This document shows, one piece after another, positions 25,495 through 60,613 of a stretch of DNA of 64,000 nt. Within the stretch, counting starts at the first letter, position 1. Each line of letters starts with the position of its first letter. The stretch is from contig CAWHCQ010000040.1 in the NCBI GenBank assembly GCA_963827755.1, forward strand, positions 39,716 to 103,715. The letters are read 5' to 3'. The notes below the pieces were generated by a model that made no database searches, was not told the origin of the DNA, and worked only from the letters and a program-made list of their open reading frames with translations. This DNA comes from an uncultured Gammaproteobacteria bacterium (GTDB lineage Bacteria > Pseudomonadota > Gammaproteobacteria > UBA9214). A program made the translations under genes and the position numbers.

Positions 25495-26172
25495 TTAAAT
25501 CAGGCCGCGTTCTGCAAATGAAACCCCGTCCCCGTCGCCAATGACCACGTGGTCGAGAATACGCACATCCACCAGCGCCAGGGCATCGATCAGTCGCCGG
25601 GTGAGCTGGATATCGGCCCGGCTGGGCTCGGCCACCCCGGACGGGTGATTGTGGGCGAGGATGATGGCGGCGGCATTGTGGTGCAACGCCCGCCGCACAA
25701 CTTCACGCGGATGAACGCTGGCCCCGTCGATGGTGCCGCGAAACAGCTCTTCAAAAATAATGATGCGGTGACGGTTGTCCAGAAACAGGCAGGCAAACAT
25801 CTCGTGGGGATGATGGCGCATGCGGCTGGCAAGGTAACGGCGCGTGGCGGCGGGGTTTTCGAGCAGATCTTCACGCTGCAACTGTTCGGCCAGATGCCGC
25901 CGTGTCATCTCGAGCATGGCCTGCAGCATAGTATATTTCGCCTCACCCAGGCCGTGCCGGGCACAGAACGCCTGCTGGTCGGCCTCAAGCAGCGGGCGCA
26001 GGCCGCCAAAATCGCCAAGCAACTCACGCGCCAGGTCAACAGCTGTTTTTCCGCTCACGCCGGTGCGCAAAAAGATCGCGAGCAACTCCGCGTCCGAGAG
26101 CGCGGCCGCACCGCGGGCAAGCAGCTTCTCCCGGGGACGCTCGCCGGCCGGCCAGTCACGGATGGAATACAT
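25495..26172 (-). CDS. radC: RadC (JAB/MPN) family protein
   Basis: [36 protein letters not shown]. Confidence 0.95.
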
Positions 26173-26262
26173 GAGGCCATCATTGCATTTGGCCACGGTG
26201 TTTACAGCGGGAGATCACGATACGGACTGTAGGAATGGATCGCATCCTGATTTTTTCCGGTT

Positions 26263-26930
26263 TGCCCTGCGGGGCGAGGTGCTGTTCTTTGCTGCGCTCA
26301 TTTGTTGGTGCGCCTTGCAGGCGCGGTTTTATTGTATGCGGGCTCTCGCGCCCGCGCGGCGAGATACTTTTCTTTGCTCCGCCAAAGAAACGTATCCAAA
26401 AGAAAGGCGGCCCGGAGGCAGCTCGATACTCGTCTGAGCGCGGGTTCCCTGCGCTTCTCGCGAAAACCGGCGCATGCGCAACTCGCAATCTCGCTGCGCT
26501 CGAAAGCTCAAACAGGGCGCATGCTTCATCCGGTTTTCACTGCGATGCTCGGCTGCGCCTACGGGAGGGGTAGATCAAACCCCAATCGGTGAGTATGGGG
26601 GGTTGATCTACCCCTCCCGTAGCACTCACCGAGTACCGCAGCCAATCCGGGGAATAGCCGCGCACCCTGTCTGAGCTTTCGAGCGCAGCGAGATTGCGAG
26701 TTGTGCGCGGCCCCCGGATTGGCGAGGAACGCAGGGGACCGTATTAGGCAAGACAGCGTAGCTGTCTTGCCTAATACGGTGAGTGCTCCGGGTGCCTTTC
26801 TCTTTGGGTACTTTCTCTTGGGCAAGCAAGAGAAAAGTATCTCGCCGCGCGGGCGCGAGAGCCCGCATCCAATAAAACCGCGCCTGCAAGGCGCCCCAAC
26901 AAGTTAACCAGCAAAAGCAGCAAAAAAATA
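26263..26930. repeat. Large nested palindromic non-coding element, copy 1
   Basis: 26302-26373 is the near reverse complement of 26831-26902; central hairpin 26561-26620; homologous to 34499-35252. Confidence 0.9.
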
Positions 26931-26979
26931 AAAAATATCCGAGCTTGTAATCACAGGTACAAAAGCAATAATAGCCGCC

Positions 26980-27933
26980 ATGCCCAGTGAGCCACTTATC
27001 CGCGCCGAACACCTGACCCGCTATTACAGCGGCACCTGCGCCGTCAACGATGTCAGCTTTGAACTCGCCAAGGGCGAAGTCCTGGGTTTTCTCGGGCCCA
27101 ATGGTGCCGGCAAATCCAGCACCATGCAGATCATCAGCGGCAACCTGGCTCCCAGCGCCGGCAGCGTCAGCATCCTGGGTATCGACCTGCTTGATCAGCC
27201 AAAACGTGCCAAGGCCGCGATTGGCTACCTGCCCGAACGCCCCCCGGTGTACCGCGAACTCACGGTCGATGAATATCTCGATTATTGTGCACGGCTTAAC
27301 CGCATAGCACGCGGCGACAAGGCACGGGCAATCGCCACCGCCAAGGACCGCTGCGGCCTGGGAGACGTCGGCCCGCGCCTGATCGGCAACCTGTCCAAGG
27401 GCTTCCAGCAACGTGTCGGTATTGCACAGGCCATCATCCATACCCCTGCCCTGGTGATCCTGGATGAACCCACCGTGGGCCTCGACCCCAACCAGATTCG
27501 CGAGATCCGCACCCTGATCCGTGAACTCGGTGAAGACCACGGCATCATTTTATCCACGCACATCCTGCCCGAGGTACAGGCCACCTGTAACCGGGTGCAG
27601 ATTATTCACCAGGGAAGACTGGTGTTCTCAGACACCATCGAGGGGCTTGAACAGGGCCTGAACGCCAGCTCTTTCCTGGTACATTTTGAAAATGCCCCGG
27701 CGATTACCGCGCTGCAGCAGATTGCCGGCGTTGAACGCGTGGAAGCCCTTGCCGATGGCCGCTTCCGGATTCACCACGCGGATGCAAACCCCGTCGAGGC
27801 CGTACTCGAGCAGGCAGTCAGCAACCATTGGCGCCTGTGTGAACTGACACCGGAGCGCCGCACGCTGGAGCAGATCTTCGTTGAACTCACCATCTCGGAA
27901 ACACACCTGGCTACCAGCGGAGATGCCGCCTGA
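26980..27933 (+). CDS. ABC transporter ATP-binding protein (GldA-like)
   Basis: GPNGAGKS, LSKGFQQRVG, ILDEPT. Confidence 0.9.
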   Translation: MPSEPLIRAEHLTRYYSGTCAVNDVSFELAKGEVLGFLGPNGAGKSSTMQIISGNLAPSAGSVSILGIDLLDQPKRAKAAIGYLPERPPVYRELTVDEYLDYCARLNRIARGDKARAIATAKDRCGLGDVGPRLIGNLSKGFQQRVGIAQAIIHTPALVILDEPTVGLDPNQIREIRTLIRELGEDHGIILSTHILPEVQATCNRVQIIHQGRLVFSDTIEGLEQGLNASSFLVHFENAPAITALQQIAGVERVEALADGRFRIHHADANPVEAVLEQAVSNHWRLCELTPERRTLEQIFVELTISETHLATSGDAA

Positions 27934-28685
27934 TGATTTTCACCATTGCCGGGCGTGAACTGCGCAGCCTGTTCCTGTCGCCGCTGGCCTGGACCATCCT
28001 TGGCGTGGTGCAGTTCATATACGCCTACATGTTCCTTTCCCAGATCGATACCTTTCTTGGCTTGCAGTCCCGGCTTGCAACCCTTGATGGCGCGCCGGGC
28101 GTTGTCGACATCGTGGTCGCACCGTCGCTTGCGAATGCCGCCGTCCTGCTGCTGTTGATCACGCCCCTGATTACCATGCGCGTACTCAGTGAAGAACGCC
28201 GCAACAACACGCTCAGCCTGCTGTTCTCGGCGCCGGTTTCCATGACCGAGATCATTGTCGGAAAATATCTCGGTGTCCTGTCGTTCGTCCTGATCCTGAT
28301 CGGCATGCTGGCACTGATGCCACTGTCGCTGCTGGCCGGCACCGACCTCGATCTCGGCAAGCTGGCAGCCGGCCTGCTCGGCCTGACACTGGTCGTGTCC
28401 GCGTTCACGGCGATCGGCATCTTCATGTCATCGTTGACCGAACAACCGACCGTTGCCGCCATCAGCACCTTCGGCCTGTTACTGTTGCTGTGGATTCTCG
28501 ACTGGGCCGGCAGCACCGGCGCGCCTTCCAGCGGCCTGCTGGGCTACCTGTCGGTACTGCATCATTATGAGCCGCTGCTGAAAGGCCTGTTCAGCAGTGT
28601 CGACGTCATCTATTACCTGCTGGTCATCACCCTGTTTCTCGTCTTCAGCATCCGCAGGCTGGATGCGGACCGCCTGCAACACTGA
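27933..28685 (+). CDS. ABC-2 permease (GldF-like)
   Basis: RELRSLFLSP, TMRVLSEERR, GKYLG. Confidence 0.88.
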   Translation: MIFTIAGRELRSLFLSPLAWTILGVVQFIYAYMFLSQIDTFLGLQSRLATLDGAPGVVDIVVAPSLANAAVLLLLITPLITMRVLSEERRNNTLSLLFSAPVSMTEIIVGKYLGVLSFVLILIGMLALMPLSLLAGTDLDLGKLAAGLLGLTLVVSAFTAIGIFMSSLTEQPTVAAISTFGLLLLLWILDWAGSTGAPSSGLLGYLSVLHHYEPLLKGLFSSVDVIYYLLVITLFLVFSIRRLDADRLQH

Positions 28686-28691
28686 ACGCCG

Positions 28692-30053
28692 ATGAAAATT
28701 ACCCCTCATTCCCGGCTTTTGCTGCGCCTGCAAGGATATGCAACCACGCTGCTGTTTACCGTCATCATCGGCCTGCTGGCCTGGCTGAGCACGGAATACG
28801 TATACCAGGCTGACTGGACAGCCAGCAGCCGCAACACGGTATCGGAGGACACCCGCAGGCTGCTCGACAGCATGAAGCAGCCGATCAGCATTACGGCCTT
28901 CGTCCGGGAAAACACTTTGCTGCGCTCGCAAATCCGCGATGTCATCGGCAGCTACCAGCGCTTCAAGGACGACATCATCCTGGAATTCGTCAACCCGGAC
29001 ACCGCACCCGAACGCGTGCGTGAACTGGGCATCACCATGGAGGGCGAGCTGCTGGTCAGCTACCGTGGCCGCAGCGAGAACGTTCGCAGGCTGAGTGAAC
29101 AACAACTGACGAATGCCCTGTTGCGCATCTCCAGGCAGGACGAACGCTGGATTGTTTTCGTCAGCGGGCACGGCGAACGCTCGCCCTTCGGACAGGCCAA
29201 TCATGACCTCGGCCTCTTCGGCAAGGAGCTGGAGCGCAAGGGGCTTAACATACAGACCGTCAACCTTGCCGAGACCGGTATCCCGCGAAACACCCATACA
29301 CTGGTACTGGCCAGCCCGCGCGTCAGGCTGCTGCCCGGCGAAATCAGGCGCCTGCAGGACTATGTCCGGGACGGGGGTAACCTGCTATGGCTGGCAGACC
29401 CGGGTGAACTGCAGGGACTGGAACCGCTGGCCGAGCAACTCGGCATCGCGTTCCTGCCCGGCATGGTGGTGGATGCCACGGCGCAGATGTTCGGTGTGGA
29501 GAACCCGGCCTTTGTCGTCGTGACCGATTACCCGCGTCATGAAAGCACCAGCGACATGGATACGGTAACGGTATTTCCGGAAGCAGTGGCGCTTGAGATA
29601 ACCGCGACGGACACATGGAACGGCATGCCGCTGCTGCTGACACTGGAGCGCTCCTGGACCGAACTCGACAAGCTGGAGGGTGACATCGGGTTTGATCCCG
29701 GGACAGATGAACGTGCCGGCCCGCTGGATATCGGCGTTGTACTGACACGCATGGTTAGCAGCGTGGACGAGGAAGATACCAGTGAACAGCGTGTCATCGT
29801 CATCGGTGATGGTGACTTTCTCTCCAACACCTATCTTGGCAATGCCGGCAACCTGGACCTCGGCCTGAACGTGACCCACTGGCTCAGCCATGACGAGACC
29901 CTGATCGACATTCGCATCAAGTCTGCACCGGACACCTCGCTGGTACTTGGAAAGATTTCCCAGGCCTTTATCGGTCTCGGTTTCCTGCTTGGCCTGCCGG
30001 CACTGCTGCTTGTCAGCGGCATCGTCATCTGGATAAGACGGCGACGCCGTTAA
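28692..30053 (+). CDS. GldG-like ABC auxiliary protein
   Basis: DWTASSRNTVSEDT, GHGE, IGDGDFLSN, C-terminal TM plus RRRRR. Confidence 0.85.
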   Translation: MKITPHSRLLLRLQGYATTLLFTVIIGLLAWLSTEYVYQADWTASSRNTVSEDTRRLLDSMKQPISITAFVRENTLLRSQIRDVIGSYQRFKDDIILEFVNPDTAPERVRELGITMEGELLVSYRGRSENVRRLSEQQLTNALLRISRQDERWIVFVSGHGERSPFGQANHDLGLFGKELERKGLNIQTVNLAETGIPRNTHTLVLASPRVRLLPGEIRRLQDYVRDGGNLLWLADPGELQGLEPLAEQLGIAFLPGMVVDATAQMFGVENPAFVVVTDYPRHESTSDMDTVTVFPEAVALEITATDTWNGMPLLLTLERSWTELDKLEGDIGFDPGTDERAGPLDIGVVLTRMVSSVDEEDTSEQRVIVIGDGDFLSNTYLGNAGNLDLGLNVTHWLSHDETLIDIRIKSAPDTSLVLGKISQAFIGLGFLLGLPALLLVSGIVIWIRRRRR

Positions 30054-30054
30054 C

Positions 30055-30918
30055 ATGCACGCACGCAATCTGCTCAACCTTGCGCTGGTTGCCGTCGCCA
30101 TCTTCCTGGGACTGGTGGTTTACTTCAAGCCGGGGTTGCAACCCGAGCCCGCACCACAACCCCTGACGACCCTGCATGGCCCGGAGCAGGCCGGCAGTAT
30201 TCATATCGAGCGGCTCACGCGTGACCCGCTGTCGTTTACCAGGCGCGATGATCGCTGGTACCTCGTCAACGCTGAACAGGAACTGCCCGCCTCGAAATTC
30301 CAGCTGCAGGCCCTGTTGCGCCTGCTCGACGCGACCTCAACCAGCCATTACACAGCGGGCACGGTTGATCTCGAAGCCCTCGGCCTGGAACCGCCGCAGG
30401 TCACGGTGACGATTGATGACGTGAAAATCCTGCTCGGCAATACCGAACCGCTGGGCAACAGGCGCTACGCACTCATCGATGGAACGGTGCACCTGATCGA
30501 AGACCGCTACCAGCACCTCATCAATGCCGGCTGGACCAATTTCATCGAACGCAAGCTGGTCCCGGAAGGCAGGGTAATTCGCAGCCTGCAATTGCCTGAC
30601 ATGAAGCTGGCATTTACAGACAGCGGTCAATGGCAATTGTTGCCCGATAAACCGGGGGTCAGCGCCGACACAATCGCGCAACTGATCGATCACTGGAGCA
30701 ACGCCAGCGCACTTTATGCACGTCCTTACGAGAGCGGCAAGTCCGGTGAGAATATTATACTGGGCTTCGAGGACACCCCGGAAATCCTGACATTCAGGCT
30801 GGTTGCGAATTCCCCCGAGCTCGATCCTTGCGCGACCGGACCGGGGCATTCAATACCACCTCTCCGGCAGCATGGCAGCATCCCTGCTGACCCTGCAGGA
30901 TGCAGGGCGGAACAGTAG
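30055..30918 (+). CDS. DUF4340 family protein (probable +1 frameshift near 30823)
   Basis: N-terminal TM, LGLEPP; fourth gene of the Gld-like operon; shifted frame reads ILARPDRGIQYHL. Confidence 0.7.
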   Translation: MHARNLLNLALVAVAIFLGLVVYFKPGLQPEPAPQPLTTLHGPEQAGSIHIERLTRDPLSFTRRDDRWYLVNAEQELPASKFQLQALLRLLDATSTSHYTAGTVDLEALGLEPPQVTVTIDDVKILLGNTEPLGNRRYALIDGTVHLIEDRYQHLINAGWTNFIERKLVPEGRVIRSLQLPDMKLAFTDSGQWQLLPDKPGVSADTIAQLIDHWSNASALYARPYESGKSGENIILGFEDTPEILTFRLVANSPELDPCATGPGHSIPPLRQHGSIPADPAGCRAEQ

Positions 30919-30936
30919 TTTCCTGATGAGCCGGTC

Positions 30937-31752
30937 ATGCCCGAACTCCCCGAGGTAGAAACCACGCGCCGCGGTATTGCGCCACACATCACCGGGAAGA
31001 AGGTTACACGTGTCATTGTGCGCAACCCGAACCTGCGCTGGAAAGTACAAGCACGAATCGACCGTGAAATGTCGGGCCAGACCATCGATGAAGTATCACG
31101 CCGCGGCAAGTATCTGCTGCTGACAACTGCGGCCGGCAGCGCCATCCTGCATCTCGGCATGTCCGGCAGCGTGCGCCTCGTCAATGCCGACACAGCGCCG
31201 AACAAGCATGATCACATCGACATCGTATTTGCCAACAGACAGGCCCTGCGCCTTACCGACCCGCGCCGTTTCGGCAGCCTGCACTGGACACGCCGGCCTC
31301 CGCTGCAACACAAGCTGCTCTGCAACCTGGGCGTGGAACCCCTGGGCGACGCATTCAACGGGGACTACCTGTACAGGATCTCGCGCAAACGCAAGGTGGC
31401 CATCAAGCAGTTCATCATGAACAGTCACATCGTTACCGGGATCGGCAATATTTACGCCTGCGAGGCCCTGTTCATGGCCGGCATCCATCCCGGGCGTGCA
31501 GCCGGGCGCATCAGCAGGAAGAAATACGCGCTGCTTGCCGAGGTCAGCAAGGAGGTCCTCAGCGACGCCATCGCCGCAGGCGGCACAACGCTGCGCGACT
31601 ACGTCGGCGGTCACGGTCAGGCCGGCTGGTTCAAACAGGAACTGCACGTCTACGGACTGGCAGGCAAACCCTGCATCAGTTGCAGGACCCTGATACGGGA
31701 AATGCGCCAGGGTCAACGCGCAACGTTTTACTGCCCGCAATGCCAGAAATAG
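30937..31752 (+). CDS. mutM: Formamidopyrimidine-DNA glycosylase
   Basis: MPELPEVET, HLGMSG, GIGNIYA, C-terminal zinc finger. Confidence 0.97.
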   Translation: MPELPEVETTRRGIAPHITGKKVTRVIVRNPNLRWKVQARIDREMSGQTIDEVSRRGKYLLLTTAAGSAILHLGMSGSVRLVNADTAPNKHDHIDIVFANRQALRLTDPRRFGSLHWTRRPPLQHKLLCNLGVEPLGDAFNGDYLYRISRKRKVAIKQFIMNSHIVTGIGNIYACEALFMAGIHPGRAAGRISRKKYALLAEVSKEVLSDAIAAGGTTLRDYVGGHGQAGWFKQELHVYGLAGKPCISCRTLIREMRQGQRATFYCPQCQK

Positions 31753-31760
31753 TTAATTGA

Positions 31761-31914
31761 CGGATCCGCTGCGCTTGATCCGCCCTACACTAAAGGGTGA
31801 ATTCCTGTAGGCCGGGTCAAGGAGCAACGCGACGGACCCGGCATACCCCGATCGCGCTTGAGAAGCGCTCCTGCAACACACACAACACCAGCAGGAGCGG
31901 ATCTCATCCGCGAT
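31761..31914. repeat. Two REP doublets (GTAG/GCAG type) between convergent mutM and ggt
   Basis: ...gatccgccctaca / tgtaggccgggtc...gacccggca; atcgcg...gctcctgca / gcaggagcggatctcatccgcgat. Confidence 0.75.
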
Positions 31915-31926
31915 GATGCAGCTGCG

Positions 31927-33645
31927 TTAATTCCGTTGCGCCTGCCGAGCGCTCCTGCCAAGCAGTCCGACCCGGGCCTCGCCGATGCCGCGCGGATCAC
32001 TGGCAGCCGAGACCCGGCCGGTCTTGCGGTCCCAGTAAATCGCCTGCATGTTGCCGTAGGTCGAATCCAGCGGCTTCAGCCTGTGCCCGCGCGCCTCGAG
32101 TGCGCTGATTGTCGGTGCATCAAAGGCGCCCGCTTCATATTGCACCTCATCGGGCAGGTACTGATGGTGGAAGCGCGGCTGGCTGACCCAGTCTTGCGGC
32201 AGCTTGCCGTCTGCAATATCCAGGATACCGAGCAGCACCATGGTAATAATACGACTGCCACCGGGTGTACCGAGTATCGCAATGCCGGCCGGGCTTTCAA
32301 CAAAGGTTGGTGACATGCTCGAGAGCGGTCGCTTCCCGGCTGCAACGGCATTGGCCTCTGCACCGACCAGTCCATAGACGTTCGGTACACCCGGCTTTGC
32401 AGAGAAATCATCCATCTCGTCGTTCAGCAACACGCCAGTGCCGGGCGGCACCACACAGGCACCGAAGGGATAGTTGATACTCAGGGTTGCGGCAACCCGG
32501 TTACCCTCGCTGTCAAGGATGGAAAAATGGGTGGTATCGCGCCCGCCCTGCAGACTTGCACGTCCCGGCAGACTTGCACTGGGTGTTGCCGCTTCCAGCC
32601 GAATCGTTGCGCGCAGCTGCTGTGCATGGGCGGCACTCGTCAAACGCTCTAACGGCACCGTGACAAAGTCCGGATCACCGAGAAACTCGGCACGATCACG
32701 ATAGGCCCGGCGCATGGCCTCGATCATCACGTGGCGACGGGCTGCCTCGTCAAGTCCGTCGAGATCATAGCCTGAAAGAATATTCAGCATCGTTGCCAGG
32801 GCAACGCCTCCCGAAGACGGCGGTGCAACGGCGGTGATATGCATACCCCGGTATTCAAAACGAACCGGTTCACGTTCGACCACGCGATAGTCGGCAAGGT
32901 CTGCAGCACTCCAGATGCCCCCGGCAGCACGCACACCGTTCACCAGCCGTTCGGCTACCGGACCCAGGTAGAACCCGGCCCGGCCGTAACGTGCGATGGA
33001 CGCCAGCGTCGCCGCCAGGTCCGGCTGCAGAATGCGTTCACCGACTGCGGGTACTTCATTATCCACCAGGAATATTCCGGCGGCCTGTGCATCATTCTTC
33101 AGGGCAGCAAGCCGGAACCGTGCCATGCGCCGGTAGTACTCATCGACAGGAAAACCATCACGCGCGAGGCGGATGGCCGGTGCCAGTGTCCGTCTCAGCG
33201 GCAGGCGTCCGTAGTGCTCTGCGATGTGCACCAGCGCAGCCGGCTCACCCGGAATGCCGGCCGCCAGTGCACCGTCAACCGACAGGCCCGGCTCAACATC
33301 ACCGTTGGCATCAAGGTACATGGTACGGCTGGCTACCATGGGCGCCCGTTCACGGCCATCCACCATGACATCATGTCCGTCACGCTGACGGTGCAACAGC
33401 CAGAAGCCGCCGCCACCGAGCCCTGAACTGTAGGGCTCAACCACGGCCAGCGCGGCACTGACTGCAACGGCCGCATCAAAGGCATTACCGCCGACAGCGA
33501 GAACCTCCATACCGGCCCGGGTCGCCAGCGGGTGTGCACTGGCAATTGCCGGAGCGGGCGGCCGGCCGGCGACTGCACCCGCGGAAAAAACCCAAAGGAC
33601 AAACAGCAAAAAGGCCCCTGCACGGAGCCCCGAAGAACACAGCAT
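31927..33645 (-). CDS. ggt: Gamma-glutamyltransferase
   Basis: GGNAFDAAVA, TTHFS, LNDEMDDF, KRPLSSMSP, SDPRG. Confidence 0.96.
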   Translation of the reverse strand: MLCSSGLRAGAFLLFVLWVFSAGAVAGRPPAPAIASAHPLATRAGMEVLAVGGNAFDAAVAVSAALAVVEPYSSGLGGGGFWLLHRQRDGHDVMVDGRERAPMVASRTMYLDANGDVEPGLSVDGALAAGIPGEPAALVHIAEHYGRLPLRRTLAPAIRLARDGFPVDEYYRRMARFRLAALKNDAQAAGIFLVDNEVPAVGERILQPDLAATLASIARYGRAGFYLGPVAERLVNGVRAAGGIWSAADLADYRVVEREPVRFEYRGMHITAVAPPSSGGVALATMLNILSGYDLDGLDEAARRHVMIEAMRRAYRDRAEFLGDPDFVTVPLERLTSAAHAQQLRATIRLEAATPSASLPGRASLQGGRDTTHFSILDSEGNRVAATLSINYPFGACVVPPGTGVLLNDEMDDFSAKPGVPNVYGLVGAEANAVAAGKRPLSSMSPTFVESPAGIAILGTPGGSRIITMVLLGILDIADGKLPQDWVSQPRFHHQYLPDEVQYEAGAFDAPTISALEARGHRLKPLDSTYGNMQAIYWDRKTGRVSAASDPRGIGEARVGLLGRSARQAQRN

Positions 33646-33657
33646 GCCAGCGATGCC

Positions 33658-33921
<264 letters not shown>

Positions 33922-33971
33922 TTATACCTGCGAGGACAGCCGGACATAGTTCTTCAATACCAAAGATGACT

Positions 33972-35252
<1,281 letters not shown>

Positions 35253-35271
35253 CCCCAGCAAACTGCAAACG

Positions 35272-35844
35272 CTAGTTATTTTTCACGCGCCTTACAAGAT
35301 GGTAATCCACCTGCCCGGCTTGCTTGCTGCGATGCAGCGTCCAGTTTTCGGGCAAATCAGGAACCAGCCCGTGCTCCGCTTCAAGGTACACCCAGGCCTC
35401 TGCTGCCAGCCAGCCACGCGTTTCAAGGGAATGCATGCATTCATCCAGGCGGCCTTCCCGAAACGGCGGATCAAGAAACACAATATCAAAGGCCCGCGGC
35501 AGCCCGGAAAGATAGTACCCGACATCTGCCTGCACCACCTCGACCTGTGTTGCCTGCAGCAGCGCCAGCTGTTCGCGCAGGCCTTCAACAACACGCGGCT
35601 GTTTTTCCACCAGCACCACTTCCGCGGCACCGCGTGATGCGGCCTCGATCCCCAACGCCCCGCTACCGGCAAACAGATCCAGGCAATGCCGCCCCCTGAT
35701 CACCGGCTCAAGCCAGTTAAACAGCGTTTCGCGAACGCGATCGGGCGTCGGTCGCAGGCCCGCTACCGGGGAAAATGCCAGTTTACGGCCACGCCAGGTA
35801 CCCGCAATAATGCGTACGCGATTGTTTGCCTGCCTTGAATCCAT
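35272..35844 (-). CDS. rsmD: 16S rRNA m2G966 methyltransferase
   Basis: RIIAGTWRGR, LRPTPDRVRETLFNWL, DLFAGSGALG, FLDPPF. Confidence 0.96.
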   Translation of the reverse strand: MDSRQANNRVRIIAGTWRGRKLAFSPVAGLRPTPDRVRETLFNWLEPVIRGRHCLDLFAGSGALGIEAASRGAAEVVLVEKQPRVVEGLREQLALLQATQVEVVQADVGYYLSGLPRAFDIVFLDPPFREGRLDECMHSLETRGWLAAEAWVYLEAEHGLVPDLPENWTLHRSKQAGQVDYHLVRRVKNN

Positions 35845-35887
35845 TGCACATCATGATCAGGCCTTGCCCGGTACCCGTCAAACAAAA

Positions 35888-36542
35888 TCACTTTCGCAAG
35901 CGGCGGCTTACTCCCGCCAGGCCGGCAACACCCGACATGAACAGCACAAGGGCCGGTGGCAGCGGCACCGTGACCACCTCCAGGGCACCCGGCGACGGCG
36001 TGTCCAGCATGATGAAATCCGCCAGGTTGTCATTGCTGTCCAGGCGCGGATCAATGCGCGCAAGGCTGCGACCGGCGGGCACATCGACAGCGGCGCGGCC
36101 TTCGCCGCCAAAAACGCCTGCAATAAAATCCCCGTAACCGAGGGCATCCAGCACCATCACGGCGATTACGCAACACGAGTGAGTCCGGACCGTTTTGTAA
36201 ATCCACCTCGACAACCAGGTCGGCATTCGCGACCAGGCTGGCGCCATCACCCCGGTCATCGGCAACAAGGAATATCCCGTCAGCCGGAATCTCGCCTGCC
36301 AGGGGTACACGCCGGTAGACCACACCATCCTTGCCATTGATACCCTCCAGCAGCAGCCCATCGAGCACTGTTCCGGGTTCGCCGAACAACTCGACAAACA
36401 CGTAGCCGTTGTCCGTACCTGTTGCATCGTATAAAACTTCCGAGATCACCGTGCCTGCATCGCACTGTACCCCCGCCAGCAAGGCCACCGTAATCGAGAC
36501 ACTCCGAAGTGTCGGTAATACGAATCTTTTTTTGACAGACAT
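35888..36542 (-). CDS. Lamin-tail-like surface protein with VPLP(A/P) PEP-CTERM-type sorting signal (+1 frameshift near 36165)
   Basis: VISEVLYD...FVEL in 36051..36554; VPLPPALVLFMSGVAGLAGVSRRLRK in 35888..36427. Confidence 0.75.
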
Positions 36543-51069: not shown

Positions 51070-51130
51070 GGAAATAATGGGGTCAGATCCTGGTTGCATC
51101 TAATATTAGCGGAAACTGGGATCTGACCCC
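51070..51130. repeat. GGGGTCAGATCC...GGATCTGACCCC hairpin, direct-repeat copy 1
   Basis: 12 bp stem 51079-51090 / 51119-51130; repeated at 51658-51711. Confidence 0.85.
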
Positions 51131-51657: not shown

Positions 51658-51711
51658 GGAAATAATGGGGTCAGATCCTAGTTGCTTCTAATATTAGCGG
51701 AAACTGGGATC
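51658..51711. repeat. Direct-repeat copy 2 (truncated hairpin)
   Basis: 52 of 54 bases identical to 51070-51123. Confidence 0.85.
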
Positions 51712-60444: not shown

Positions 60445-60484
60445 TCCTCCAAACTGCAAATTTTTCCGCTGCTGCGGTATTTTC

Positions 60485-60613
60485 TTCGCGGATTAGATCC
60501 GCTCCTGCAGCAATTACCTGCGATATCCGCGGAATTACTCGCGGATGTCCGCCCCTGCAGAATTACCTTCGCGGATTAGATCCGCCCCTGTAGGAGCGGA
60601 TCTAATCCGCGAT
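60485..60613. repeat. Tandem and inverted REP cluster (GTAGGAGCGGATCTAATCCGCGA family)
   Basis: Three full or partial ttcgcggattagatccgc copies plus one inverse copy; same family as 31891-31914. Confidence 0.75.

Follow-up and report, generated by a model that had tools for sequence, protein, structure and literature searches.

Several families of non-coding repeats with hairpin or inverted symmetry are known from bacteria. REP and REPIN sequences are hairpin repeats of 20 to 40 nucleotides (nt) that carry a GTAG or CGTC tag and go with RAYT (Y1) transposases. The defining marks of Correia/NEMIS, ERIC/IRU, and RUP elements are terminal inverted repeats and target duplications, and their occurrence is limited to a genus or family. 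The attC site, with its box consensus RYYYAAC/GTTRRRY, is an imperfect hairpin with a variable center that acts as a folded single strand. NTS/SRM hairpin repeats are recognized as single-stranded DNA by separately encoded Ssn nucleases, according to the parts of Chenal et al. 2025 (PMC11893778) drawn on here. For intrastrand triplexes, the main-text parts of Holder et al. 2015 (PMC4666352) used below define the class II order as pyrimidine, complementary purine, and mirror purine. Here we describe a quasi-palindromic element of ~600 nt at positions 26302 to 26902 of a 64,000-nt stretch of DNA (the window) from contig CAWHCQ010000040.1 of an uncultured gammaproteobacterium (lineage UBA9214, assembly GCA_963827755.1; hereafter the source genome). 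The element consists of two convergent, facing copies of one directional non-coding unit of ~200 nt, which comprises a small GC hairpin, a pyrimidine/purine hairpin with a mirror third strand, and an irregular hairpin of ~120 nt (the arm). We hold with moderate confidence that the element as a whole is explained as facing copies of a widespread directional unit that acts as folded DNA.

Covariation and anatomy of the facing units

A first-pass annotation of positions 26410 to 26792 had proposed that each of the two arms is a selected single-strand fold and had suggested looking for covariation in a larger alignment. Ninety arms were parsed by their anchors, the 73 distinct arms were aligned with MAFFT (alignment A1), and RNAalifold was run on that alignment. 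A1 was fitted to no structure; two further alignments, one of 118 distinct arms from three genera of the family (A2) and one of 126 distinct units that came from many taxa and from 98 of 100 loci (A3), were fitted to a covariance model, R1. The proportion of paired cells was 94.3% in A1, against 78.9% in shuffled and 33 to 45% in slid controls; the corresponding values were 93.3%, 73.7%, and 34 to 44% for A2 and 93.0%, 62.5%, and 35 to 51% for A3. Pairs changed on both sides numbered 14, 16, and 22 of 24 in A1, A2, and A3, respectively, with scores of 0.407, 0.482, and 0.716 compared with 0.143, 0.151, and 0.159 after shuffling. The observed score was reached by none of 500 shuffles in any of the three alignments, and the covariation counts were also above those of every slid control.

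The changes were matched at individual positions as well. In A1, P1 pairs switched by arm type: columns 8 and 126 held 37 C-G and 33 U-A pairs, and columns 10 and 124 held 37 U-A and 33 C-G pairs. Several P2 positions in A3 used all four Watson-Crick pairs about equally (for example, AU 34, CG 33, GC 26, and UA 26), and 938 cells had changed on both sides compared with 47 on one side only. P0 is interrupted by a slot and was tested separately. Among 228 distinct units, its longest complementary run averaged 5.59, compared with 4.56 when 3′ strands were re-dealt among units (standard deviation [sd], 0.057; maximum, 4.71; 200 trials), and the complementarity of P0 is therefore unit specific. The 386-nt inner stretch of the element folded with a z score of −21.5 as DNA and −22.1 as RNA, and none of 100 shuffles folded as well. 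These results show that matched substitutions, affecting both members of nearly every pair, have preserved the capacity of the units to fold, and that each unit folds on itself. The covariation that the first-pass annotation had suggested looking for was thus found, and its view of each arm as a selected fold was borne out.

From base to tip, an arm runs through P0, a slot, P1 (CCCTGCGyTTC with GrTr..CTCGG), P2, and P3 to an invariant unpaired tip, AACTCG...CTCARACAG, which encloses P4, a replaceable hairpin of 0 to 40 nt. The stem pairs listed by the annotation were all present at their positions, and both arm types keep the pairing with different letters. In arm A, on the plus strand, AGGCAGC (26416 to 26422) pairs with GCTGCGCCT (26552 to 26560) as P0, GAAAACCGG (26462 to 26470) pairs with CCGGTTTTC (26530 to 26538) as P2, and GCATGCGC (26472 to 26479) pairs with GCGCATGC (26517 to 26524) as P3. 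In arm B, on the minus strand, the corresponding pairs are 26777 to 26787 with 26621 to 26628, 26714 to 26723 with 26641 to 26650, and 26703 to 26711 with 26657 to 26665. Type A arms generally read GAAAACCGG/CCGGTTTTC, GCATGCGC/GCGCATGC, and CTGCGATGCTCGG, and type B arms read GCCAATCCGG/CCGGATTGGC, GCCGCGCAC/GTGCGCGGC, and CTGCGGTACTCGG. Throughout the genus, the two types stay distinct in H3, P0, P1, P2, and P3. Chimeras with a broken stem do occur in a few cases (the B arm of a second copy of the element in the window and one arm each on contigs C7 and C19), and therefore not all copies are intact.

Other features of the annotation needed revision. It had described linkers that stay constant, and CCCTGCG, AACTCG, CTCA(A/G)ACAG, CTCGG, and ACGGG are indeed identical in both arms, but some linkers pair, CCCTGCG..TTC with G.T..CTCGG forming helix P1. 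It had also assigned one slot to freely replaceable hairpins. The perfect 20-bp hairpin at 26738 to 26780 does differ from its counterpart at 35011 to 35042, and other source-genome copies carry still others, but each arm has two such slots, of which the first follows the 5′ strand of P0 and the second, P4, is at the tip; the center of the element is variable as well. The segment from 26410 to 26792 is structured but is the inner part only of the larger element, whose outer arms (26302 to 26403 and 26801 to 26902) are 84% complementary and which has a second, inverted copy at ~34495 to 35250. Two points go beyond that annotation altogether: the arms are copies of a widespread directional unit, and the fold extends outward into a triplex-type module.

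Unit A lies on the plus strand. Its outer hairpins (26310 to 26355) are H1, GCGCCTTGCAGGCGC (26310 to 26324), which is followed by GGTTTTATTG in an inward, terminator-like arrangement, and H2, GCGGGCTCTCGCGCCCGC (26338 to 26355); with one mismatch allowed, the source genome contains 50 occurrences of the H1 motif and 30 of the H2 motif. The triplex-type module occupies 26364 to 26410. In the main hairpin (within 26411 to 26565), the 5′ half contains P0, the slot 1 hairpin (~26423 to 26446), J1/P1 (26447 to 26460), P2, and P3; the tip consists of AACTCG (26480 to 26485), P4 (26486 to 26506), and CTCAAACAG (26507 to 26515); and the 3′ half contains P3′, P2′, J2/P1′ (26540 to 26552), and P0′, followed by ACGGG. 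Between the units, a central hairpin (26566 to 26615) reads AGGGGTAGATCAAACCCC ... GGGGTTGATCTACCCCT. Among relatives it varies or is missing, this stretch being A/C rich there, and another GTAG-type repeat is inserted in it in two source-genome copies.

Unit B lies on the minus strand. The low-coordinate half of its main hairpin (within 26616 to 26792) contains P0′, J2 (26629 to 26641), P2′, P3′, and CTCAGACAG (26667 to 26675), and the high-coordinate half contains AACTCG (26697 to 26702), P3, P2, J1 (26723 to 26736), the slot 1 hairpin, and P0. The triplex-type module follows at 26795 to 26839, and the outer hairpins at 26849 to 26902 are H2 (26849 to 26866) and H1 (26880 to 26894), with a terminator-like T run on the minus strand and the end of the element at ~26902. 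The second copy is inverted relative to the first, and its arms are 97 to 99% complementary to those of the first. Its unit B, on the plus strand, has J1 at 34725 to 34738, the tip at 34759 to 34764, and J2 at 34817 to 34829; P3 of this arm is a broken A/B chimera. Its unit A, on the minus strand, has J2 at 34905 to 34917, the tip at 34971 to 34976, J1 at 34996 to 35009, and the slot hairpin at 35011 to 35042.

The front module and comparison with described repeats

Outside P0, one or two GC hairpins precede three blocks: a pyrimidine arm, a purine arm, and a third strand, also of purines. In unit A, these three blocks lie at 26364 to 26376, 26383 to 26395, and 26396 to 26407 and read CTTTTCTTTG / CAAAGAAA(C)G / CAAAAGAAAGG. 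Unit B has a compensated version, CTTTCTCTTG / CAAGAGAAAG / CAAAGAGAAGG, with the pyrimidine arm at 26827 to 26839, the purine arm at 26809 to 26820, and the third strand at 26795 to 26808. In both window arms, the third block mirrors the purine arm and covaries with it, and compensatory differences occur in all three blocks. Among 139 distinct units, the mirror match was 8/8 in 79 and 7/8 in 35, with a mean of 7.06, compared with a mean of 6.42 (sd, 0.055; maximum, 6.55) over 200 re-pairings in which third strands were dealt to other units. A direct-repeat reading of the third strand was perfect in only 23 of the 139. The hairpin loop and the tail after the third strand are also related; in unit A of the window, GGCGG (26406 to 26410) is complementary to the loop CCGCC, and across the 139 units the complementary run averaged 4.22 compared with 3.28 in the control. 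The loop is thus complementary to the bases where the chain would arrive past the helix, which suggests a pseudoknot-like closure. On this pattern of letters, the module has the design of an intrastrand triple helix closed in the manner of a pseudoknot.

The module follows the class II order, as do the BoxC/PIT/TMECO repeats, in which pyrimidine, purine, and mirror purine likewise succeed one another on one strand. According to the same main-text parts of PMC4666352, those repeats are also multicopy, intergenic, present in many bacteria, and linked to rearranged loci. The TMECO/BoxC consensus given there (CCCTCNCCC N3-6 GGGNGAGGG N3 GGGNGAGGG) was not found in the module, which is A/T rich (for example, CTTTTCTTTG / CAAAGAAAAG / CAAAAGAAAGG); the unit therefore shares the triplex design and not the TMECO sequence family. 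TMECO repeats are described in those parts as G/C rich and ~35 to 40 nt long, whereas the A/T-rich module is only the front part of a 200-nt unit, most of which is a covarying 120-nt hairpin with an invariant tip, and in the unit the loop of the hairpin is complementary to the strand that comes after the third arm. The parts of that main text covered do not describe a repeat that joins a triplex module to a long hairpin.

Like REP and REPIN sequences, the units are non-coding hairpins that occur in tens of copies per genome, are often arranged as inverted doublets, persist for long times in a lineage, and presumably work in the form of folded single-stranded DNA. They differ in their length of ~200 nt, in having five helices, and in lacking a GTAG or CGTC tag at the base; GTAG occurs only beside the central hairpin of source-genome copies and is absent there in relatives. 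Furthermore, no Y1 gene was found flanked by units, and there was no co-occurrence with Y1 genes. With bacterial miniature inverted-repeat transposable elements (MITEs), the units share an intergenic location, a lack of coding capacity, multiple copies, inverted symmetry, and a capacity to carry terminator or promoter signals, but a single directional unit with covarying internal helices is conserved across phyla. An autonomous relative with the same ends and a transposase was not found in an 11-kb block of contig C4 or at 21 Marinobacterium loci, the places searched. The likeness to attC lies in the imperfect hairpin and variable central part, and Desulfosarcina units alternate with toxin-antitoxin cassettes at a spacing of 1.1 to 1.4 kb. 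In the unit, however, the conserved letters are at the tip and not at the base, and source-genome units are scattered between ordinary genes rather than forming an array. No attC boxes were seen: the hairpin base of all arms reads CCCTGYG... / ...CTGCGRTRCTCGG, and an array-like layout occurred only in Desulfosarcina, where an integrase was not searched for. The best precedent is NTS/SRM, described in the parts of PMC11893778 used here as a widespread hairpin repeat with conserved non-palindromic flanks that is read by a dedicated enzyme; the NTS given there is ~30 nt long (CGTCATTCCCGCGMAVGCGGGAATCYRG) and unrelated to the unit in sequence. Overall, we rate the unit as belonging with the structured intergenic DNA repeats of the triplex/REP type.

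The source genome also contains GTAG/CTAC-tagged repeats of its own. REP1 (GTAGGAGC.AGCGCCAGC) has 77 matches, mostly as inverted doublets, one of which (C40:74334-74389; window ~34620 to 34700) is nested in the second copy of the element. REP2 (GTAGGATGGGTAA) has 49 matches and is nested in the central hairpin of two elements, and REP3 (CTACAAGGC.GC) has 87 matches and sits in the slot of several arms. Further GTAG/CTAC-tagged sites lie at C17:40037-40102 and C4:87660.

Distribution and genomic context

The source genome (2.85 Mb in 52 contigs, 91.8% complete) holds ~12 full copies of the element. In addition, fragments lie at two contig ends, and two A-type arms stand alone. The outer and inner parts are both present in every one of the 12 full copies. 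Model R1 detected arms in 25 of 36 genomes of the genus, in 4 of 5 and 2 of 5 genomes of two other genera, and in none of 7 genomes of three further genera of the family. Within the genus, arm numbers ranged from 0 to 29 per genome. No copies were found by blastn in 16 genomes of 16 other families of the class. An exact pattern of the tip and 3′ junction matched at least 122 stretches among contigs representing one genome per species, from Xanthomonadales to Desulfobacterales. The matches listed include Stenotrophomonas, Xanthomonas hortorum, Pseudoxanthomonas, Lysobacter, Rhodanobacteraceae, Marinobacterium, Methylophaga, Zhongshania, Ketobacter, Sedimenticola, Thiohalobacter, Thiohalomonadaceae, Ectothiorhodospiraceae, Methylotenera, Burkholderiales, Desulfosarcina and other Desulfobacterales, Desulfurivibrio, Hydrosulfovibrio, and one metagenomic Spirochaetota genome.

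The order of parts within the unit was the same across the matched loci. R1 found the unit in 98 of the first 100 of these loci, which were examined over ~300 nt on each side: 68 held a single unit, 26 a convergent pair, 2 a divergent pair, and 2 a tandem pair. Facing pairs are thus the preferred arrangement when units are paired. Whole-genome searches returned 26 units in a Marinobacterium chromosome, 10 in Stenotrophomonas maltophilia, 7 in Desulfosarcina alkanivorans, 4 in Methylophaga thiooxydans, and 2 in Xanthomonas hortorum. BLAST gave no match on plasmids (with a Xanthomonas unit as the query), in E. coli genomes, or in phages. The unit was not described in the main texts covered of the literature on intrastrand triplex repeats, Xanthomonadaceae stem-loop families, and Stenotrophomonas palindromic repeats.

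One site records the history of an element across species. At locus L035 (genome G023), an element occupies the same site in G022, G015, and G003 and lies there in the opposite orientation in G050, with flanks that are 77 to 89% identical. The site lacks the element in G020, where the flanking genes are 117 nt apart, and in G017, G024, and G004, where 254 to 410 nt with other small repeats separate them. The element has therefore been gained, lost, or flipped at this site, yet it is old there. Copies within the source genome are 87 to 100% alike, compared with 66 to 78% for most other species of the genus and up to 94% for the closest relative, G012, which reflects either copy-to-copy homogenization or turnover.

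The small repeats at the L035 site are distinct sequences. In relatives (L106 and L109, from G020 and G004; L107, L108, and L035, from G017, G024, and G023), they include a CGTC-tagged NTS/SRM-like hairpin (GTCGTTCCCGCGCAGGCGGGGA..), separate from the unit, and a G/C-rich, TMECO-like triplex motif (CCCTCTCCC TCA GGGAGAGGG TCA GGGAGAGGG). A different repeat of ~200 nt adjoins the element at L035:1927-2128 in G023 and has many copies, 75 to 99% identical, in G015 and G048.

The first window copy lies between a divergent radC gene (minus strand) and an ABC transporter operon (plus strand), within 25495 to 27933, and the second lies between the codirectional genes rsmD and coaD. In most relatives, radC is inverted relative to the ABC transporter gene and is 2.5 to 3.4 kb away, and thus a rearrangement ends at the first copy. 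On contig C4 (C4:87685-98955; L031), the two lone A-type arms are 98% alike and point toward each other over a distance of 11 kb. The block between them has a GC content of 42 to 55%, against ~60% otherwise, and encodes SoxY, cytochrome c, CBS and PDZ proteins, and a two-component system. PMC4666352, in its main-text parts, links triplex repeats to rearranged loci; the present cases fit that link but are anecdotal. In the Desulfosarcina alkanivorans chromosome (4476000 to 4483000; L234), three units on the same strand, spaced 1.3 to 1.4 kb apart, alternate with toxin-antitoxin cassettes (HicB-like; HigB-like with a helix-turn-helix [HTH] protein; and PIN/DUF4411 with an IrrE-HTH protein). A second pair of units, 1.1 kb apart, lies elsewhere in the same chromosome (L235). 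This layout recalls a cassette array.

How the unit may act

Several features bear on whether the fold acts as DNA or as RNA. Of 2,872 cells in A3, 2,613 were Watson-Crick pairs, 48 were G·T, 56 were A·C, and 155 were others; A2 had 2,463 Watson-Crick, 22 G·T, and 50 A·C cells. Since G·T was no commoner than A·C, neither strand shows a sign of tolerating wobble pairs. The G·U share of structured RNA families is usually far above the 1.7% seen here. The arm-sense strand encodes a purine-type triplex, and RNA is said to be unable to form that type (PMC4666352, introduction). Each window copy has a terminator-like hairpin pointing inward at either end, and neither contains a sigma-70-like site, the sole match in the first range scanned lying outside the element at 26945 to 26972. 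In addition, both units of paired elements are conserved in mirror symmetry. These observations lead us to lean, without regarding the matter as settled, toward DNA.

Several observations weigh against the reading of facing units that act as folded DNA. The fit of A2 and A3 to the R1 structure favors pairing and the kinship of the sequences inflates the shuffle test, although the slid controls and the unfitted A1 agree with them in direction. As one free strand, the 386-nt inner element forms a global hairpin of arm A with arm B (−155 kcal/mol as DNA and −269 kcal/mol as RNA), because arm A and arm B are complementary to each other in their constant segments. No enzyme was found and no gene recurs beside the units: the 13 open reading frames (ORFs) scanned in the C4 block include no transposase, 21 Marinobacterium loci (6 to 11 kb) share no recurrent neighbor except one insertion sequence-like ORF pair at 2 loci, and the similarities revealed by tblastx of the flanks of 122 loci were second units and not genes. 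The source genome has four Y1 genes of the RAYT/IS200 type, with no arms at their loci (E value up to 1). Genomes G044, G013, and G056 (96, 90, and 93% complete) hold 11, 12, and 6 arms and no Y1 match, and five genomes of genus g19 have no arms and 5 to 10 Y1 matches each. A DUF559 nuclease was likewise not found in the source genome, at its 91.8% completeness. The occupation of the same site in several species means that recent movement is not demonstrated, and the ends of the 12 copies showed no target-site duplication; the filled and empty orthologous sites are too diverged to place a boundary. The remaining points concern RNA. The complementary strand encodes a pyrimidine-type (U·A-U) triplex, RNA is able to form U·A-U triple helices, and the triplex argument is therefore compatible with an antisense RNA. 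The coupling of purine and pyrimidine types on opposite strands has been noted for A-A-T triads (PMC4666352, main-text parts). Downstream of many units lie A/C-rich tracts or short tandem repeats, such as ACCCGTT, repeated three to four times in the element center in G022 (L079 and L080), and GCGACAA, CAACAGC, or AGCCGA in Xanthomonadaceae (L118, L145, L166, and L169). Three metatranscriptome runs from one study hold 7 to 8% of the sampled words. Pieces of the element are present in their short contigs, whose summed depth is higher over the element than over flanking genes; these contigs are unstranded and sum a multicopy repeat over several organisms with possible DNA carryover, so that they show neither transcription nor silence.

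Two candidate readings were rejected on such evidence. A RAYT link fails since the presence of Y1 genes does not follow that of units across 54 genomes. The whole element as one long functional hairpin is thermodynamically preferred, but the covariation supports pairs within arms, and the arm types are kept different. We infer that the arms fold one at a time, while only part of the element is single stranded. Long perfect palindromes are unstable in bacteria, and this instability may have favored divergence between the arms.

On an RNA account, which we consider rather unlikely, the units would be genes for a family of small structured RNAs transcribed in the arm sense or antisense, the tip would serve as an RNA-protein or RNA-RNA contact, and the antisense module could form a U·A-U triple-helix pseudoknot. 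Strong covariation together with invariant unpaired segments conserved across phyla would suit such a family, as would the directionality of the unit with its downstream tails and the pieces in RNA libraries, and folding during transcription would favor arm-by-arm folds over the global hairpin. The scarcity of G·U-type cells argues against it, as do the inward terminators with no promoter-like site inside either window copy, and no conserved promoter-like block was present upstream of 12 Marinobacterium units. Moreover, one transcript cannot carry both mirror-symmetric units in sense. A search of Rfam 15 with window positions 25500 to 36000 returned only RT-13, on the central hairpin, at 23.5 bits against a gathering threshold of 69.1 (E = 0.65), and no Rfam family overlapped the unit at eight loci from distant taxa.

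The distribution of the units bears on two DNA-based alternatives. The inverted arms, the many copies, their occurrence at contig ends, the presence or absence of the element at one orthologous site, and the two lone A arms facing each other across 11 kb could all be read as terminal inverted repeats that a DDE transposase binds as double-stranded DNA, with the internal stems being incidental. This is very improbable. The unit stands alone, with no inverted partner within ~300 nt, at 68 of 98 loci, which makes the unit and not the pair the conserved entity; double-stranded binding sites would leave the compensatory changes in five helices and the mirror strand unexplained; and neither a target-site duplication nor a transposase between or beside the arms was seen. 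Somewhat less remote, though still distinctly unlikely, is that the units are immobile host elements with a chromosomal job, such as bidirectional termination, insulation, or service as a binding site for a nucleoid or topology protein. Jobs of this kind have been suggested for BIME/REP sequences, five or more species of the genus have the element at one and the same site, the element has terminator-like hairpins at both ends, and both window copies are intergenic in different contexts (divergent and codirectional). Host elements would not be expected to have a patchy distribution across distant phyla with near-identical tip motifs, to vary from 0 to 29 arms per genome within one genus, or to be more alike within a genome than in most other species of that genus, and a terminator needs neither a 120-nt hairpin nor an invariant tip.

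If the units do act as folded DNA, the fold would matter when one strand is free, that is, during replication or repair or upon extrusion under supercoiling. A trans-acting protein able to bind or cut folded single-stranded DNA would then recognize the invariant tip and junctions and might copy, move, or maintain the units, by analogy with the enzymes that read REP or NTS/SRM hairpins. The differences between the arm types in every stem would avoid a 300-bp perfect palindrome while each arm retained its own fold. Side effects on the host may include a supply of inward terminator-like hairpins, and elements may serve as recombination substrates, as the rearranged copies and rearranged neighboring genes suggest. 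A more specific version can be offered tentatively, as a doubtful possibility: the unit may be the cis signal of an undescribed single-stranded-DNA system present in several phyla, in which a dedicated enzyme recognizes a folded DNA module, composed of the triple-helix pseudoknot and the long invariant-tipped hairpin, and copies, cuts, or recombines units, facing pairs are the active form, and the centers are landing sites, as for the REP doublet in two source-genome copies and the 11-kb low-GC block in C4.

A fold that acts in DNA would rank among the most elaborate conserved DNA structures in bacterial chromosomes, combining a triplex module with a 120-nt hairpin that covariation has preserved from Xanthomonadales to Desulfobacterales, and would imply a still-to-be-found protein that reads folded single-stranded DNA. 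The Ssn/NTS precedent, in the parts of PMC11893778 used here, indicates that such enzymes can be common and useful as tools. Were the fold to act as RNA instead, the units would constitute a widespread new RNA family with a possible triple-helix pseudoknot. The family also explains long "empty" intergenic stretches and contig breaks in metagenome-assembled genomes and marks sites of rearrangement, and the covariance model can be used by annotators.

Two other repeats were noted in the window. A 54-nt sequence occurs twice, at 51070 to 51130 and 51658 to 51711; its copies are 96% alike, 588 nt apart, and each palindromic, and they are unrelated to the element. At 60465 to 60593, two 46-nt direct repeats (TCCGC..CTGC.G....TTCGCGGATTAGATCCGC.CCTG.AG) are 83% alike and lie 83 nt apart.

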